Part shown: positions 2,976 through 61,523 of the stretch, one piece after another
Position numbering within the stretch: position 1 is the first letter of the stretch
Layout of the letters: each line of letters starts with the position of its first letter
DNA from: Lama glama
Taxonomy: Eukaryota
DNA length: 64,000 nt
Direction of reading: 5' to 3'
Assembly (NCBI GenBank): GCA_028534125.1
Contig: CM052816.1
Location: forward strand, 78,618,001-78,682,000
Notes under the pieces: generated by a model
Databases searched by the model: none
Told to the model about the DNA's origin: nothing
The model's input: the letters and a program-made list of their open reading frames with translations, nothing else
Position numbers and translations under genes: made by a program

Positions 2976-3169
2976 TGTTTCACGACTTTGTGAGGTAAGT
3001 GTAACACCGCAGCTCAGAGAAGAATCAACACGCCTAAGGCCACATAATTTCATGAGGAGTAGAGACAGCATTTGGAGGTAGGTCATTTTGTCTGTAAGGC
3101 CATGTACTTTCCACCCTTCCTCACTATTCGCTTCTCCTCTGATTGTTTCTGAACCACCTTCATCCTGCC

Positions 3170-4300
3170 CATCCCTCCCGCCCCAGGCGTGCCCTTAGGA
3201 GAAGTTAACATATCTGCTCGTGGTCCGCCTCTGGCGGCCCTGACACGGGCGCGGGCCCTGGGCGCGCTGAGTCCCCCTTTCGGAGCTGCACGCAGAAGCC
3301 GCAGGGCAAGAGGCTTGCGGGCGGCGCGTGGCGCACCGTGCGCGCACCGTGGGGCAGCCTATCCGCGACTGCGGCCCGAGTGCTGCCTGGTGGGAATCCC
3401 TCCCCAGCTGGGGAGGAAGCCAGTTGTTTTCCTCCTAGTGGAACGTTCCACTTGAAATCGTTCCACAAGGGCTGTTCTCGCCTCCGACTCCGGGAAGAAC
3501 TGTAATTAACACAGCAACAAACGCCCACGACGCTAACTGGCAAAGGGAGTGTAACACGAGCCGCTTCTCCAACCGAACTGGGCCAATTGCTTTCCCTTCT
3601 TGCCTCCCCATTTGGTCTGTTTTGGTTCCGCAGTCATCCAACTGTGGCGTTTCTTAAAACATGTCAGTGGCTGGTGTTTGTGTTTTGGGTGGAACAGTTT
3701 CACACACGTCGCTGGAGACGGTGCTCGACCAGCTGCTGTGCTGGGTCCTTGCTTTCTGCGGCTTGGGGAGTGTCAAGTAGAGAAATGAAGAAGCGACGAG
3801 AAGGGTGGGAGGGAGGATGAGGAAGGACGCCTGCCTTCTCCGATTGTCTGGAGTTGGATCGGTAGCCTCCTCCGGACGAGGACAGGTAAAACCGGTCTGC
3901 CGGGTCTCCAAGGGGAACGGTTGGAGACGTCCCAAGTGAGTTGCATCGTCTGCTCGCGGCGGCTGCGCTCACCTGGCGGCTGCCCTCACCTGGCGGCTGC
4001 CCTCCGACTCTGGCTTGGAAGCTGGGGCACTGAGGCTACAAGAAAAGGGAGAGGGGTGGGCCCTCGCAGGTCCTGCAAACAACGCTCAAAGGCCAGCCAG
4101 GCGAGACCACGAGCGGGCTGCTGGGGGTGGGGTAGGGGAGGATGGAGGAGGGGTCGGGGGCGGCCCGGGCTGCAGGGAGCGCTCTGACTCCTTTACCTAC
4201 AATTTTCAGGCTCTCATCTCTGATGCGGCCATTACGCATCACCTTGCTCTGGCCCAGCGTGGTCTACCCACCCGCGGCCCCGGCATCACGTGGGTGCTTG
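3170..4300. promoter_or_regulatory. CpG island, probable promoter or first-exon region of an unidentified gene or lncRNA
   Basis: Abrupt rise in GC and CpG relative to the CpG-depleted flanks; no obvious interspersed repeat; GC box CCCGCCCC at ~3177-3184; CCAAT at 3583; splice-donor-like motifs on both strands. Confidence 0.75.
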
Positions 4301-4400: not shown

Positions 4401-6589
4401 ATGCATGTAACTTTTTCTAACGTCTTTCTATCAGTGTCTTGCAGTGTCAACACATTACTTTCAAAATTTGTGGCAAAGCCATGGATTTTGGAGAAATGTA
4501 ACCCTGCTTCCAGCTAAAAGTCTGAACCAGTTCCATACTTAGCACCAGCTGTCTGCTAATTGCTGCTAAGGGGTAATAAGTGAAAGGAAGGCCGAGCCTG
4601 CTACACAGTCCAACCTGGAACATCTCAGAGACTAGATGGGGAGCCAAAACCTGAACAAGAAGGACTAAATAACTGTATGAGATAATGATGCAAGAGATTA
4701 CACAAGGCAGAATAACTCTCACGATGAACAGCTTAATAAACAGTAATGCTACGTATTGAGTGAATTCACTATACTAAACTCATACTGTGCCACCAATGTG
4801 TGTATTCTCTATGTATACAGATTCGTATATGTAAGCATATATATGTGTATTATGTATATATATAGAGAGAGAGACAGGCACAGAGAGACAGAGTATATAT
4901 TCTAACATAGGATCTTACACACAGTAGGTGATCAATATTTATTGAATATTGATTCTCCTGGAGAGAGAAGACTCTTGCGTTTTAAACCAAACCAGCAAGG
5001 ACCTGTTTTAAAATAAAACGTATTACCGGTAACCAACAGTCCATTTAATGTGTCCTTTAAAACATTAATTACACAGACACTCACCATAAATACAAAGCCC
5101 TCATTTGAACACAATGGATTGGAGAAGCCCAGAAGGACCCAATATAGCTTCTTCAAGAATTCTGCTGTCTTCCCAGTCAGAATAACCCAGCATGCTTTCT
5201 ACATGTCCATTAAGGCCTCCCAGGACACAGTACCCTCATAGATCATAGACTTAACTTTTTTCAGAGCTGTTTCAATTTTATGAGTTATTGATCTGCAAGC
5301 CAAACATTTTCAGACTGAGGCTTCACTGAATGACCTGTAATAGCTCCAATTTATTCTGTCAAGTACTCCGAGCTCCCTAGCTAGGCACTTAGTTGTGCAT
5401 AGTGAGTACCAGAGAGAAGCAGGGGTGGAGTGGCACTCATCTCTGGTGGTCAGAAGGATCTTAAAATTTTTTTTAATTCATTTAATTTTTTTTTCTCTGC
5501 AGTGTTTTGTTGGCATTAGTGCACCCATTGTTAATATTTACACTCCAACCAAATTAGACTTCTCCGTTTTACAAAAGTTGCACTAGTTTCATAATGAGAG
5601 TTCTGCAGAGCCTACTGGATATACTATCTAACAAATACTGTCGGGTAAAAATGAATTGTCAAATGCTGGTGAATAATGAAAAGTCATTAGGAAGCCGTTG
5701 ACATCTACAATGTCTGCACTGTGCAAGTTATCTTTGCTCTACCATTACATTAAAATAAAACCAATACTTCTTCCCAGAACTTCCAGGAGAACTCAGCAGC
5801 AAATATCCAAACTGGAAGAGAGTAATCCATTTTTGGTGGCAGTCCACACAGCTGCTTTGTCCGGTACCATTGTAAGATACTGGGAATCCTGACATTGAAA
5901 GAATTCAAATCTGTTTTAAATGAGACCTCTGGAAACTGAGATTTGAAGAAAGGGAACTGCCACAGGGAATAGTGTTGCTAAACTTTACAAATAGCATTAT
6001 TGGTTTGTAAAAGTCACCAACATATTGTCATGATTTTGGTAGAGCCAGGCACAGTATCCGGGAAAAAAGAAAAGAAAAGGAAGAAACCTTTCATCACAGC
6101 AATATTGAGAACCATAAAATCAGTAATTAGATTTACAGAAAAAAAAAAAAAACCAACAGTGGGAGTTAAAACCTCAGGGACGCAATGAGCTAGTTTGGAA
6201 CTGGTTACAGTTTGGCATTGCATGGATACCACTTGCTGTCTTTTGCTGATACACACCAAAGGAGTTAAAAACAAACACAAATAACAGTAGGTACTAACAA
6301 AGATGGATACTCTTTTATGCTGGCTTTCCTGATAATTATTTTCTAAATATGCCATGAAGAGAGTTTTTAATCCTATATTTTATAGAGAGTGTATAGGAGA
6401 ATTCTGTAAGGACATTCAATAAAGAGCATTGAGATTAATAATGGAAATTTTTTTTATCCCACGCAGAATTTAATTTTCTAAGCAAAAAAAGTAAAGGAGC
6501 TATGTCTTTAAAATTAAAGACATCTAAATATTTATTCCAGGGGGAAGTGTAAGGAATCAAATGAACATATTTATAGACTGTAGTTCTCT

Positions 6590-8004: not shown

Positions 8005-8828
8005 AAAAACATACAGCCAGCATTGTACTCAACAGTGAAAAACTCAAAAGCTTCCCACTAAAATCTGGGACAAGACAAAGCTGCCCACTACCACCACTCC
8101 TATTCAACATAGTCTTGAAAGTCCTAGCTACAGCAAGAGAGAGAAATAAAAGGGATCCAAATTGGAAAAGAAGAGGTAAAAGTGTCACTATATGCAGATG
8201 ACATGATACTATATATAGAAAACCCTAAAAGATCTGCACAAAAACTACTAGAAATAATCGAAGAATTCAGCAAGGTAACAGGTTACAAGATTAATGTTCA
8301 AAAATCAGTTGCATTTCTTTACACTAACAATGAATCAACAGAAAAAGAAAGTAAAGGAACAATCCCCTTTAAAATAGCACCCATAGTAATAAAATATCTA
8401 GGAATAAATCTAACCAAGGAGATGAAAGGCTGATATATGGAAAACTATAAAACACTGATTAAGGAAATTAAAGAAGACTTGAAAAAATGGAAAGATATCC
8501 CATGCTTCTGGATTGGAAGAATCAATATTGTTAAAATGGTCACACTGCCCAAGGCAATCTACAGATTTAATGCAATACCTATCAAATTACCCAGGACATA
8601 TTTCACGGAACTAGAACAAATTATAATAAAATTTATATGGAACCACAAAAGGCCTAGAATTGCCAAAGCATTACTGAAGAAAAAGAAAGAGGCTGGAGGA
8701 ATAACCCTCCTAGACTTCAGATAATACTGTAGAGCTACAGTAATCAAGACAGCATGGTATTGGTACAAGAACAGACATATGGACCAATAGAACAGAACAG
8801 AGAGCCCAGAAATGAACCCACAAACTTT
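8005..8828 (+). mobile_element. LINE-1 ORF2 fragment (RT domain and downstream), 5'-truncated, inactivated, running into a gap
   Basis: Translations [15 protein letters not shown] (RT catalytic motif), [44 protein letters not shown]. In-frame stops at ~8431 and ~8722. Confidence 0.97.
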
Positions 8829-9328
8829 NNNNNNNNNNNNNNNNNNNNNNNNNNNNNNNNNNNNNNNNNNNNNNNNNNNNNNNNNNNNNNNNNNNNNNNN
8901 NNNNNNNNNNNNNNNNNNNNNNNNNNNNNNNNNNNNNNNNNNNNNNNNNNNNNNNNNNNNNNNNNNNNNNNNNNNNNNNNNNNNNNNNNNNNNNNNNNNN
9001 NNNNNNNNNNNNNNNNNNNNNNNNNNNNNNNNNNNNNNNNNNNNNNNNNNNNNNNNNNNNNNNNNNNNNNNNNNNNNNNNNNNNNNNNNNNNNNNNNNNN
9101 NNNNNNNNNNNNNNNNNNNNNNNNNNNNNNNNNNNNNNNNNNNNNNNNNNNNNNNNNNNNNNNNNNNNNNNNNNNNNNNNNNNNNNNNNNNNNNNNNNNN
9201 NNNNNNNNNNNNNNNNNNNNNNNNNNNNNNNNNNNNNNNNNNNNNNNNNNNNNNNNNNNNNNNNNNNNNNNNNNNNNNNNNNNNNNNNNNNNNNNNNNNN
9301 NNNNNNNNNNNNNNNNNNNNNNNNNNNN
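8829..9328. other. Assembly gap (500 N)
   Basis: Run of exactly 500 N. Confidence 0.99.
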
Positions 9329-11720: not shown

Positions 11721-12689
11721 GAGGTGAGAGGCATGTGCACGAGCAGAGGGTGAGGTGCTGTAAGTTTGCGCCTGAATCAGGGAGAGAGGATGTGAAGTGG
11801 TCCATAAGAGGGAGCTCATACAAATATATTCTATCGTGAGAGTGGATTTCCAAGTGGAGCAAAAGAATCAACACAGACCTATTTACAAAGGTTTTCTAAG
11901 CTCTGATCGTGTCCTCTACAAAGAGCTCTGCCACTGCCCTTTTCACCTGTATTATAATTATCCGTTTATCTAGTCTTCCCCACCAGATTGTGAGAACCTT
12001 AAGGGCAGGGGTTGGTCTCAGAGACGTTGGTCTCATAGAACACAGCACAGCATTGTAGAACCTACAAATTAATGAGATATTCAAGGAATACTGTGTAAAG
12101 AAAGGGAAGTTAGTGGTGTGACGACAGTGAGGGCCTGAAACAGCCCCTGTGGGGCGTGGGAGCATGATCAGGCCAGAGAATGGGGAAGAGTGTTCAGGTA
12201 GTACCGAGCACCTACCTGGCGTCATGAAGTTGTGACAAGTACCTAGCCACCTGTGTGACTCTCTCCACCAGCACCTAAGTGGACAGGGGAGGGAGGCCAT
12301 GAGCCAGGCGTCGTAGATCTTGGTGAGTGCCGGGACCAGGAGGTCAGAAGACAATAATTTAATATGTTTGATGTTTAATGGTATTTCCTGACATCTCAGA
12401 GTTTCACCTGAGACTCCAGCTTAACGATAGGTGATTATAAATGTTTACAGATTCAAAAGAGAGGTGGTGCAGATGCCTATATCCTGGACTTGGAAAGAGT
12501 CAGACAGAAACCAGTCCGTAATGGATTACCCGTCTCTAGGCTATAAAAGGAAAAAACAAAGTATTTGTCCTTCTGCAGAAAGCATCATGGCATTTCCTCT
12601 CACCTTTCCAGGGAAGAAGGTTTTGATTGTCACTACCCTCAAGCCAAATAAGGGGGCTCTCTTGGCCCAGTAGCCCCATGAGGCTTAAG

Positions 12690-21089: not shown

Positions 21090-21232
21090 CTTTTTTTTTT
21101 TTTTGATGATTTTTTTTGTGTGGGTGGGTAATTAGGTTTACTTATTTATTTTTAGGGGGGTACTGGGGATTGAACCCAGGACCCTGTGCATGTTAAGCAT
21201 GTGCTCTACCACTTGAGCTATACTCACCCCCC
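21090..21232 (-). mobile_element. tRNA-Ala-derived SINE (camelid Vic-1-like)
   Basis: Reverse complement GGGGTGAGTATAGCTCAAGTGGTAGAGCACATGCTTAACATGCACAGGGTCCTGGGTTCAATCCCCAGTAC; Pol III A and B boxes; AAACCTAATTACC 3' block; A-rich tail. Confidence 0.9.
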
Positions 21233-21249
21233 AACTTTTCTTTTAATGC

Positions 21250-21394
21250 ATTTTATTTTTTCATACATTTGAGGGGGGTTGGGGTGAGGTAATTAGGTTT
21301 ATTTATGTATTTTTTTAGTGGAGGTAATAGGGATTGAACCCATGATCTCGTGCATGCTAAGCACGCACTCTACCACCGAGCTCTGTCCTCCCCC
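21250..21394 (-). mobile_element. tRNA-Ala-derived SINE (Vic-1-like), tandem with the previous copy
   Basis: ggattgaacccatgatctcgtgcatgctaagcacgcactctaccaccgagct and the same gtaattaggttt block. Confidence 0.9.
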
Positions 21395-28795: not shown

Positions 28796-29351
28796 TGTAT
28801 TAGTTATCTATTGCTTTGTAACAAATTTTCCCTCCCTCCAAATTTAGTGGCTTAAAATAATAAATATTTATTATCTTACAGTTTCTATGGGCCAGGAATT
28901 TTTGGGGCAGATTCACTTAGTGTTTCTGGCTCAAAGCCTCTTCTGTAGTTACAATCAGGATATCATCCAGGGCTGGAGGCATCTGAGGGCTAGACTAAGG
29001 TGGGAGAATCCACTTCCAAGGTGGCTCACTGACAACCTGACAGGAATCCTCAGTTTCTACCTGATATTGGCAGGAGACCTTACTTCTCCACTGCATGGCT
29101 CTCTTCATAGGGCTGCCTGCGTGTTTTAAAAATATAGCAGCTGGAAAATCCCCCCAAAGCAAGCAATCCAAGGGAGAAAACAAAGAGGAAGCTATTATCT
29201 CCTAAGTTGCATGCTATCACTTCTTCCTTCTTCTCTTTGTTAGATGTCAGTCTTTTAAGTCCAGCCCACACTCAAGGAGTGGGAATTTAGGCTTCACTCC
29301 TTGGAGGGAGATGAATCAAAGAATTTGTGGACGTATTTTTAAGCTGCCGCA
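28796..29351 (-). mobile_element. MLT1F/H-like LTR
   Basis: tgtattagttatctattgct...aatccacttccaaggtggctcact...gtccagcccacactcaagg...aaagaatttgtggac. Confidence 0.8.
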
Positions 29352-29850
29352 TAATCCTCCATAGATGTGAAAAATGTATTACTTTGCATAATTTTTATGC
29401 AATTTTCATATAATATCTACATTTGCAAAATATCTCTCATCATTAACAATAATTCCAATAACCCCGAATCAGGTTATCTCTTCCATTATGGCAACTGCTC
29501 ACATTTCTTTAATCTTTTTCTATCATCCTAATTTTTCTTCTTCAAAGGCACGTTTGCATGAAGGTCAATTTCCTCTCCTTATTCAAGCTAATGTAAAGAT
29601 AAGATTTGTCCCCATAGTCACTATAGATACCATAGTTTTTCATACTAAATAATTATCAGCAGCCACAGACCTACCTTTCTATGAGTGAAAAATAAAACTC
29701 TACAATTTTTTCATGGCAGGAGGCCCCACAAGTAATTAAAATATAGGTGTCAGGGTAAGGGAGTAAGAAGGGCTTGAATTATCTTACTGAATTCATTGAA
29801 GAAGTGAATCAGAACATGTAAGAATAATTTCAAATCATTACATAATTTTT

Positions 29851-29980
29851 TTTTGCCTCCCATCATTAGTATTTATTGAGCATTTACAGTGTACTAGGCA
29901 CAATAGAACATACAGAAAACATTGTCCCTGCTCTTGAGGAGCTTACATTCTAAAAGAAAAAAAAAATACACCCTTTTTTA
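29851..29980 (-). pseudogene. Polyadenylated mRNA-3'-end retrocopy fragment (L2-derived 3'UTR end; TPM3-like from recall, unverified)
   Basis: Minus strand reads ...AGAATGTAAGCTCCTCAAGAGCAGGGACAATG...GCTCAATAAATACTAATGATGGGAGGC then an A run. AATAAA lies 17 nt before the A run. It sits inside the same TSD pair as the adjacent SINE. Confidence 0.6.
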
Positions 29981-29984
29981 TTAG

Positions 29985-30141
29985 TATATTATTTATTTTT
30001 ATTTTGGCAGGAAGGGGAGGTAGCTAGGTTTGTTTGTTTATTTATTTATTTATTTATTTATTTAGAGGAGGTACTGGGGATTGAACCCAGGACCTCACAC
30101 ATGCAAAGCATGCACTCTACCACTGAGCTATATCCACCCCC
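29985..30141 (-). mobile_element. tRNA-Ala-derived SINE (Vic-1-like)
   Basis: Reverse complement GGGGGTGGATATAGCTCAGTGGTAGAGTGCATGCTTTGCATGTGTGAGGTCCTGGGTTCAATCCCCAGTAC followed by (AAAT)n. Confidence 0.92.
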
Positions 30142-30331
30142 TACATAATTTTTAAAGAAGTAGTAAAATTATTTTTAAAGGCATTCCCAAAAGAAAGAAA
30201 CATTTCCTCCCATTTACGAACAGTAACACCTAGCAAGATATTTCAGAATTATCTGGACAATGCAAAAGAAAAGTTCCAATGAAACTATAGGTATGTCATA
30301 AAAATGAAGATTGCATTAACTATTCATATTT

Positions 30332-30682
30332 GTTTTTTTTAACATTTTTTACTGATTTATAATCATTTTACAATGTTGTGTCAAATTCTAGTGCTCAGCA
30401 CAATTTTTCAGTCATTCATGGACATATACACACTCATTGTCACATTTTTTTCTCTGTGATTTATCATAACATTTTGTGTATATTTCCCTGTGCTATACAG
30501 TGTAATCTTGTTTATCTATTCTACAATTTTGAAATCCCAGTCTATCCCTTCCCACCCTCTACCTCCCTGGTAACCACAAGTCTGTATTCTCTGTCCATGA
30601 GTCTATTTCTGTCCTGTATTTATGCTTTGTTTTTGTTTGTTTGTTTTTGTTTGTTTTTTAGATTCCACATATGAGCGATCTC
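30332..30682 (-). mobile_element. Young lineage-specific L1 3' end running into a gap
   Basis: T-tract, then aacattttttactgatttataatcattttacaatg...ttccctgtgctatacag...tttagattccacatatgagcgatc. Confidence 0.88.
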
Positions 30683-31182
30683 NNNNNNNNNNNNNNNNNN
30701 NNNNNNNNNNNNNNNNNNNNNNNNNNNNNNNNNNNNNNNNNNNNNNNNNNNNNNNNNNNNNNNNNNNNNNNNNNNNNNNNNNNNNNNNNNNNNNNNNNNN
30801 NNNNNNNNNNNNNNNNNNNNNNNNNNNNNNNNNNNNNNNNNNNNNNNNNNNNNNNNNNNNNNNNNNNNNNNNNNNNNNNNNNNNNNNNNNNNNNNNNNNN
30901 NNNNNNNNNNNNNNNNNNNNNNNNNNNNNNNNNNNNNNNNNNNNNNNNNNNNNNNNNNNNNNNNNNNNNNNNNNNNNNNNNNNNNNNNNNNNNNNNNNNN
31001 NNNNNNNNNNNNNNNNNNNNNNNNNNNNNNNNNNNNNNNNNNNNNNNNNNNNNNNNNNNNNNNNNNNNNNNNNNNNNNNNNNNNNNNNNNNNNNNNNNNN
31101 NNNNNNNNNNNNNNNNNNNNNNNNNNNNNNNNNNNNNNNNNNNNNNNNNNNNNNNNNNNNNNNNNNNNNNNNNNNNNNNNNN
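30683..31182. other. Assembly gap (500 N)
   Basis: Run of exactly 500 N. Confidence 0.99.
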
Positions 31183-47063: not shown

Positions 47064-48086
47064 AGAATAGGCTTTTGCAAGAGTTCCATGCAAAAGTATT
47101 CCGGAAATACAGACATGAGGGCTGATGGAAAGCTGTGCAGTTTATTTCCGAGCAGGTAGCTGGCTTACGTTTGTTCTCAACTTGCCTTGAGCAACTCACC
47201 ACGCAGTCAACCTGTGGACTAGACGTGTGGACACCACCTACTGTCTGTAGGGTGGCACTCCATTAAAGTAACATTCATGCCTTTTGGGTAAAATGGGGGA
47301 GACACCTAAGTGGTCTGTTATTGAATGACCTTACAATCCCTTCAAATCGTTGAAATGCTTACTGGTAAAAATTCCTTCTTTTTCTTCCTCTTCATTTCTG
47401 TCAAATTTAATTTTCTTGTTTTCTTTTCCTGGAACTCTAGTAGCTGTCAAGAATGTATTGCTGGGAGCCAAATTTGTCATTTTATCTTTGGCAGTTGCAG
47501 AACCTGGATTTTTTTCTTTCTAGGGGTAATGCGTCTCCACTTAGAGGATCGCGCAAGGAAAATGCACTCCTGAAACAAGATTTGTTCTGCTGGTTTCCTT
47601 CAATTTGTCAAAAAGACGCAAATCTCACCAGCCTCACTTTGTAATAATGCCCTGAAATTACTTGGAATCATCTTCCACCTACTTTTCTTGTTTTTTTCAT
47701 CTAACGTTTGTGGCAGGGAAGCAGAAAATGAACAACTTTACAATTTAATGTTCTGCTTATACGTGTATTGTCAAAGCTAATTGTTTTAAGCAAGGTATCT
47801 TATCATCAATTACAGTGATCAGTGCCTATGAATAAAAAAGTAACAAGTCTTTTCATAAGAGTCCCGTACTTAACTCTTTCATGCCCTGACACCAGTGACG
47901 AGGACAAAAGTCTGGACTTAGGCAATGAAAAGCCTTCAAAATAGATAAGTGGCTCATTTATTAATGAAATTCTTTGAGTTTCCTCTGTGCTCTACCCAGT
48001 TAGAAAGAGAGACAGTTGCGAAAAAAAAATTCTCTCATTTGCAGAAAAGGAAACTGAGACCATCAATCAATTAAAGACTTTTGCTT

Positions 48087-48127
48087 GTAAAATGATTATA
48101 AATCAATAAAAAATGTTAAAAAATAGA
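48087..48127 (+). mobile_element. 41-bp L1 3' tip with a 14-bp TSD
   Basis: Matches the reverse complement of the L1 end at ~30335-30371; exact TSD aaagacttttgctt. Confidence 0.85.
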
Positions 48128-48191
48128 AAAGACTTTTGCTTTCCCGGTTCAACTGGGTATTAGCAATGTTGAATGTTAACATCACCTTCAA

Positions 48192-56395: not shown

Positions 56396-56828
56396 TTATA
56401 AGTACACATTTATTAGAATATATCTCCATGAAAGGAGGGGTTTTATACACTGTTGTACCTGCATTGTCCAGTACTGGGCCTGGCACACAGTAGGCACTGT
56501 ATAAATATCTGAGAAATAAATAGAGGAGCGGGCAGCATCTTCTCTGTTTATCCTAGTGGTAGTGTGAGCAGGTTTATCACTCCATGATAGTAACACCCCA
56601 AACAAGCCCCATTTATTAAGCCTGTACACAGACCGGTCCATCTACCTTTTTTTCCCTGATCTAATCTTCAACAAAATCCCAGGAAATAAGAATGATTCTC
56701 ATCGTGATAAGTATGAGCAAACTGAGGCAGTTAAGTAACTTGCCCAAAGTCATGCAGCTCATAGGCAAGGCCAGGATTGGGGCCCTAGTCTATCAACTCC
56801 AAAGCTCATTTCTTTTTAGACTCTAGAC

Positions 56829-61416: not shown

Positions 61417-61523
61417 GGGGAGGATATAGCTCAAGTGGTAGAGCGCCATGGTTCTGGGTTCAATCCCCAGTACTGCCTCTAAAACTAAATAAAGCTAATT
61501 ACCCCCCCAACCCACCCCAAAAG
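61417..61523 (+). mobile_element. tRNA-Ala-derived SINE with a deleted anticodon arm
   Basis: ggggaggatatagctcaagtggtagagcgccatggttctgggttcaatccccagtac; degenerate TSD aaaagttctccag / aaaaggcttccag. Confidence 0.88.

Follow-up and report, generated by a model that had tools for sequence, protein, structure and literature searches.

L1-type machinery can join unrelated RNAs within a single insertion. The bipartite chimeric retrogenes made by LINEs carry a full-length 5′ RNA, have both parts in the same orientation and are flanked by direct repeats (Gogvadze et al. 2007, PMC2104539). Known pairings include U6/L1, U6/pseudogene, U6/Alu and U5 with an unknown sequence (Doucet et al. 2015, PMC4476161), and a B2-U6-L1 chimera is also on record (PMC2104539). 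Template switching has been argued to be perhaps largely restricted to U6 and U6atac (PMC4476161). Human Alu/L1 chimeras, of which 113 have been reported, are mostly full-length and 88.5% sense, and they are rare when set against more than 500,000 L1 copies (Law and Burns, 10.1101/2025.02.02.635956). A related product is the 3′ transduction of L1 and SVA, also sought for Alu, in which an element is followed by unique sequence, poly(A) and a distant 3′ target-site duplication (TSD). With k-mers from 5 bp and one mismatch, a distant 3′ TSD was recorded at 633 of 118,489 AluY elements, with no verified transduction among them (Halabian et al., 10.1101/2024.04.29.591526).

Here we describe an insert in a 64-kb stretch of llama DNA (the window), in which a tRNA-derived SINE precedes a second, non-SINE sequence, the passenger, within one TSD (Table 1). 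We provisionally file it with the LINE-made bipartite chimeric retrogenes, since it has a full-length 5′ RNA, a common orientation and a flanking repeat at a nick motif, and none of the features examined speaks against this. The reading we prefer, and to which we give about an even chance of being correct, is a single L1-mediated insertion that combined SINE RNA with a 3′ end taken from a polyadenylated transcript. The probabilities that we attach to the competing mechanisms are judgements rather than computed posteriors.

Results

One exact direct repeat encloses the insert

Two exact copies of TACATAATTTTT occur in the 64-kb window. They cannot be extended on either side and lie 291 bp apart. 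On the minus strand the 5′ edge reads TT/AAAAATTATGTA, followed by the first G of the SINE, so that the insert is flanked by an exact 12-bp repeat at the L1 endonuclease motif TT/AAAA. The original prediction of an exact repeat around ~290 bp, with the L1 endonuclease consensus directly before the SINE on the minus strand, is thereby borne out.

Table 1. Coordinates of the parts of the insert within the window
Feature	Position	Strand	Description
5′ TSD copy	30142..30153	-	AAAAATTATGTA in sense; exact, non-extendable, abuts first base of SINE
L1 endonuclease site TT/AAAA	TT directly before 30142..30153	-	
Full-length tRNA-Ala-derived SINE body	30006..30141	-	Head, (TAAA)n tract, C-rich 3′ module
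A-box-like motif	30130-30120	-	By eye from sequence
B-box-like motif	30087-30078	-	By eye from sequence
C-rich 3′ module of SINE	30028-30006	-	Common to 4 of the 7 other copies in the window (alignment)
A-rich junction	29975..30005	-	SINE tail running into passenger; exact boundary not placeable
Non-SINE passenger	29855..29974	-	No close copy elsewhere in the window
T10 then T4	29952..29966	-	Canonical Pol III terminator, 175-190 nt from SINE start; T10 at 29966-29957, T4 at 29955-29952
Further T4	29919-29916	-	
Poly(A) signal AATAAA	29872..29877	-	17 nt before A run
Residual poly(A) tail	29851..29854	-	4 As outside TSD; A9 with the five As of the TSD
3′ TSD copy	29839..29850	-	Exact repeat of 30142..30153

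Across the window, a 12-mer is repeated 60-600 nt downstream at 34 of the 122,009 positions tested, corresponding to 11 distinct pairs with the SINE/passenger locus included. A poly(A) signal (A[AT]TAAA) 10-45 nt before the second copy accompanies one of these 34 recurrences, that at the SINE/passenger locus; of the 122,009 positions, this one alone unites a 12-mer repeat with a suitably spaced poly(A) signal. The non-A part of the TSD measures 7 nt, and 7-mers recur at 5504 of 110,095 positions (~5%). The case therefore rests on the combination of features and not on the repeat alone.

An assembly artefact was considered and rejected. A gap starts 530 bp away, at 30683, and a mis-join would not be expected to yield a TSD together with a nick motif.

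The 5′ part is a full-length SINE

A tRNA-Ala(TGC) is called at 30065-30137 (-) by ARAGORN, and the SINE head scores 47 bits against the Rfam tRNA model, the highest of seven matches in the window. The element opens on the G run at which the other copies also start, and none of the three modules is missing, as in a full-length copy of a cellular RNA. ARAGORN, Rfam and the alignment with the seven other window copies thus concur with the earlier description of a complete tRNA-Ala SINE. A real tRNA gene at 30065-30137 was rejected because the SINE tail and 3′ module are present.

Eight copies of this simple tRNA-derived SINE occur in the 64 kb. The family is probably vic-1, which SINEBase names as the simple SINE of camels (PMC3531059); the likeness lies in the simple tRNA-derived build and in the eight copies seen here. 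The head differs from the leave-one-out consensus of the window copies at 7 of 74 positions; some of these differences may be subfamily variants, in which case the SINE would be younger than the figure of 9.5% implies.

Among the seven other copies, an adjacent TSD is kept in two, none is detectable in four, and one has a weak, distant candidate. Two copies lie head to tail, ~30 nt apart, at 21121-21394 (-), the second beginning behind TTAAAA; neither a shared nor a separate TSD was found for this pair. The copy at 61417-61520 (+), in which 14 nt of the anticodon arm are missing, also begins behind TTAAAA, and no TSD was detected for it at the thresholds used. Anticodons differ between two of the copies: the one at 21318-21391 has AGC, and that at 30065-30137 (-) has TGC.

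The passenger ends in a poly(A) signal and an A run

The SINE head, the AATAAA hexamer and the A run all lie on the minus strand. The order AATAAA, 17 nt, A run and TSD, as first described, is confirmed: the hexamer starts at 29877, and the A9 run at 29854-29846, five of whose nine As lie in the TSD, follows 17 nt after it. The insert thereby shows an arrangement typical of processed pseudogenes, in which the poly(A) signal precedes the A tail by 10-30 nt and a TSD follows. The SINE and the junction contain nine further AATAAA hexamers, so that the hexamer itself comes cheaply at this locus. The prediction had placed ~130 nt of non-SINE sequence ahead of the signal; a non-SINE stretch is indeed present, but the figure includes the A-rich tail of the SINE itself.

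Against the rest of the window, blastn returned only matches of up to 27 bp for the passenger. Its best local match, at 56413-56508, is weak (nhmmer, 10.0 bits, E 0.054) and colinear over most of its length; none of 40 shuffles reached 10.0 bits, the best scoring 9.1. The two halves of the passenger show a weak likeness to 1413-1452 and 11975-12011. A scan of the window for an L2-tail motif gave one match elsewhere (44661) and none in the passenger. One exact motif had 0 matches in viral, metagenome and prokaryote genome contigs, and blastn against plasmids likewise gave none; these collections are not mammalian, and the negative results carry no weight. The passenger and its window matches resemble what we take to be L2 3′ ends, which carry AATAAA. 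An L2 derivation of the passenger, as predicted, has the weak likeness to 56413-56508 in its favour. The GC content of the passenger (0.32) compares with 0.34 and 0.29 in its flanks, and these flanks (29400-29838 and 30154-30328) have no other match in the window at E 1, nor was an older element spanning the site found.

The passenger was first likened to the distal 3′ UTR end of TPM3, a gene name that we take as a lead; we, too, presume a likeness to a mammalian mRNA 3′ UTR. The literature searched for TPM3 retrocopies yielded no publication mentioning TPM3.

The junction matches the repeat at chance level

Between the SINE and the passenger, 25 of the 41 bases from 30006 to 29966 are A. The best match to the TSD here is 9/12, at 29996-29985, in agreement with the three mismatches in 12 noted earlier. 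Of 20,000 shuffles, 49% match the TSD at least this well, as do 52 of 280 A-rich control windows (P 0.19-0.49), which puts the likeness at chance level.

Beyond the junction, the passenger contains T runs that bear on transcription by Pol III. In mammals T4 is enough for termination, and no read-through was seen at T5 in vitro, although leaky termination is documented in the same study (PMC3141230). No T run stands directly before the A run at the distal end of the insert, and the stretch 3′ of the SINE does include runs of at least four T, of which a Pol III transduction should have none.

Discussion

The insert is best explained as a dead, single-copy fossil of retrotransposition, and one copy was seen. 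If two RNAs were joined, ORF2p would have nicked TT/AAAA and begun reverse transcription at the poly(A) tail of a cellular transcript (TPRT). Some 130-150 nt of the 3′ end of that transcript, presumably encoded elsewhere, would have been copied first, and copying would then have moved on to the SINE RNA, entering at its A-rich tail and ending at its first base. The transition may have been a template switch or a re-priming event aided by A-rich microhomology, for which the A-rich junction could have offered a landing site on the SINE tail, or the two RNAs may have been ligated beforehand. Second-strand cleavage 12 nt away would have produced the TSD around both parts, which would thus have arrived together.

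Several observations argue for such a two-RNA chimera. The exact 12-bp repeat abuts the first base of the SINE and is the only one accompanied by a suitably placed poly(A) signal; the tail of the SINE shows no TSD copy above chance level, against an adjacent TSD in two of the seven other copies; and the T runs speak against one Pol III transcript. A full-length 5′ Pol III RNA is the rule in chimeras (PMC2104539), and a two-RNA origin therefore needs neither Pol III read-through of the T runs nor a Pol II copy cut at the start of the SINE. Counting against this origin, the tail extends only 4 As beyond the TSD, distant 3′ TSDs are often due to chance (10.1101/2024.04.29.591526), chimeras are rare (10.1101/2025.02.02.635956), and template switching may be confined largely to U6 and U6atac (PMC4476161). 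Moreover, four of the seven other SINE copies have no detectable TSD and a fifth has only a weak, distant one, so that a missing inner TSD is not unusual. The proposal of a chimera or a SINE 3′ transduction stands in part: of the readings weighed, a single L1-mediated insertion fits best, and a Pol II transcript bearing a SINE is uncontradicted, but Pol III transduction is contradicted by the T10 and two T4 runs.

In comparison with known products, the insert shares with bipartite chimeric retrogenes (PMC2104539) and U6/pseudogene chimeras (PMC4476161) a 5′ part that is a full-length small Pol III RNA, a shorter polyadenylated 3′ piece, a common orientation, one TSD and an L1 nick motif. It differs from them in that its 5′ partner is a tRNA-derived SINE instead of U6 and its 3′ partner is a putative truncated RNA copy. 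With the Alu/LINE-1 chimeras it has in common a full-length SINE, in sense, ahead of another retrocopied piece, a TSD within the reported 11-17 bp, TT/AAAA and an A tail (10.1101/2025.02.02.635956). Its 3′ part, however, is not L1, and the comparison of the window with itself revealed no likeness to the L1-type end at 30329. The sequence of element, unique sequence, poly(A) and distant 3′ TSD is that of a 3′ transduction, but the internal T runs fail the Pol III criterion applied to such events (10.1101/2024.04.29.591526). In the literature searched, we found neither a camelid case of a SINE-mRNA chimera nor a catalogue of this pairing. A SINE placed before an mRNA end may already be in print.

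Foremost among the competing explanations, though unlikely, is an origin from one Pol II RNA. A transcript with a SINE in its 3′ UTR, ~130 nt upstream of the poly(A) site, would have been retrocopied and 5′-truncated exactly at the first base of the SINE; the same product would result if Pol II had read through a source SINE. The common orientation, the one TSD and the internal T runs, which Pol II ignores, are then explained without a template switch. What speaks against it is the truncation at the first base of the SINE with zero upstream bases kept, which would be coincidental if reverse transcriptase were not halted by the G run or the tRNA fold. A sense-oriented SINE in the source UTR is also required.

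The passenger might instead be an ancient, L2-type local remnant, with a SINE inserted just upstream that has since lost its TSD, and with the 12-bp repeat arising by coincidence. We regard this as rather unlikely. The weak resemblances of the passenger to other parts of the window, the AATAAA carried by L2 3′ ends and a GC content near that of the flanks are all compatible with a local origin. Ten other 12-mer pairs also recur within 600 nt in the window, and distant TSDs in AluY have been judged likely coincidental (10.1101/2024.04.29.591526). Yet a coincidental repeat would have to abut the first base of the SINE, open on a perfect nick motif and come directly after an A run that follows AATAAA by 17 nt, and a poly(A) signal accompanies 0 of the 33 other 12-mer recurrences. 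Nor would a local remnant be expected to match a distant mRNA 3′ UTR closely, as the passenger may do.

Sequential insertion at one nick appears doubtful and ranks below the local remnant. A short, 5′-truncated retrocopy would have arrived first, its TSD regenerating TT/AAAA; a later SINE would have entered at the same nick, and the middle TSD would since have eroded within the A-rich tail. The prior is not negligible, given that two other SINE copies begin just behind one of the 134 TTAAAA sites (~1.5% per site). The TSDs of other SINE copies have decayed, and the junction does bear a 9/12 likeness to the TSD. Alu elements can reuse one insertion site, and the literature searched gave no relevant publication on repeated insertion at one site.

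A SINE arriving later at a regenerated nick should, however, leave a third copy of the TSD at its tail, where the best match is the chance-level 9/12, equally readable as an (AnT) SINE tail. All three changes would have had to strike the middle copy and spare the outer pair; the probability of at least 3 changes in 12 is 0.005-0.10 at divergences of 0.03-0.095. Likelihood ratios of sequential to single insertion came to 0.0007-0.056 (divergences 0.03-0.13, two backgrounds), under a model that covers A-tract slippage only as loss of 1-3 As and uses a rough TSD-length prior of our own choice. Among 1500 simulated sequential junctions, none scored as low as the real one. These results uphold the earlier view that sequential insertion is less likely, and we estimate, by combining rough numbers, that one event is favoured over two by a few-fold to some tens-fold.

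A propagating composite, in which a tRNA SINE with a captured 3′ UTR end and a Pol II-type poly(A) signal exists in several copies that share one junction, seems very improbable, and the internal T runs count against a unit of this kind that spreads by itself. If true, it would be a genuine 3′ transduction linked to a SINE, which the survey of 118,489 AluY did not confirm in human (10.1101/2024.04.29.591526), or a composite SINE in the making. The least credible explanation is a Pol III transduction, in which transcription of a source SINE ran on into its flank and the polyadenylated product was reinserted: it would account for the exact start at the first base of the SINE and the single TSD, and Pol III read-through (PMC3141230) and AAUAAA-dependent polyadenylation of T+ SINE RNAs are known, but it fails its defining test, with a T10 after 175 nt and two T4 runs before the distal poly(A) signal.

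If SINE RNA and a transcript end were indeed joined in one L1 reaction, a tRNA-derived SINE RNA, beyond U6 or Alu, could serve as the 5′ partner of a non-L1 polyadenylated RNA. This would bear modestly on the question of whether U6 is exceptional in undergoing template switching or ligation (PMC4476161). The insert would, in addition, document a poly(A) site that was active in an ancestral germ line and provide a presence/absence marker. One dead copy without sign of function carries no field-changing weight.

Genomic surroundings

Nothing suggests a role for the insert. Among the 97 stop-to-stop frames of at least 90 aa in the window, 17 were scanned with Pfam; these gave one match, at 8128-8430 (RVT_1), and no host gene was identified in the window on this basis. 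The match belongs to a reverse-transcriptase fragment at 8128-8724 (+) (RVT_1, E 2e-10), which lies beside an assembly gap at 8829-9328 and which we take to be L1 ORF2-like. The nearest CpG island measured lies ~26 kb from the insert. A CpG island at 3000-4300 (observed/expected 0.70, GC 0.60) is probably a promoter. The sequence at 28800-29330 (+) may derive from an old MaLR-type LTR, which it resembles.

Very short insertions occur in this genome, as illustrated by a 41-bp insert between exact 14-bp direct repeats at 48073-48141. Over 45 bp it shares 93% identity with 30329-30373, which forms the end of a longer element reaching into the gap at 30683. We take this end to be the 3′ end of an L1, in which case 48073-48141 would be an extremely truncated L1 insertion.
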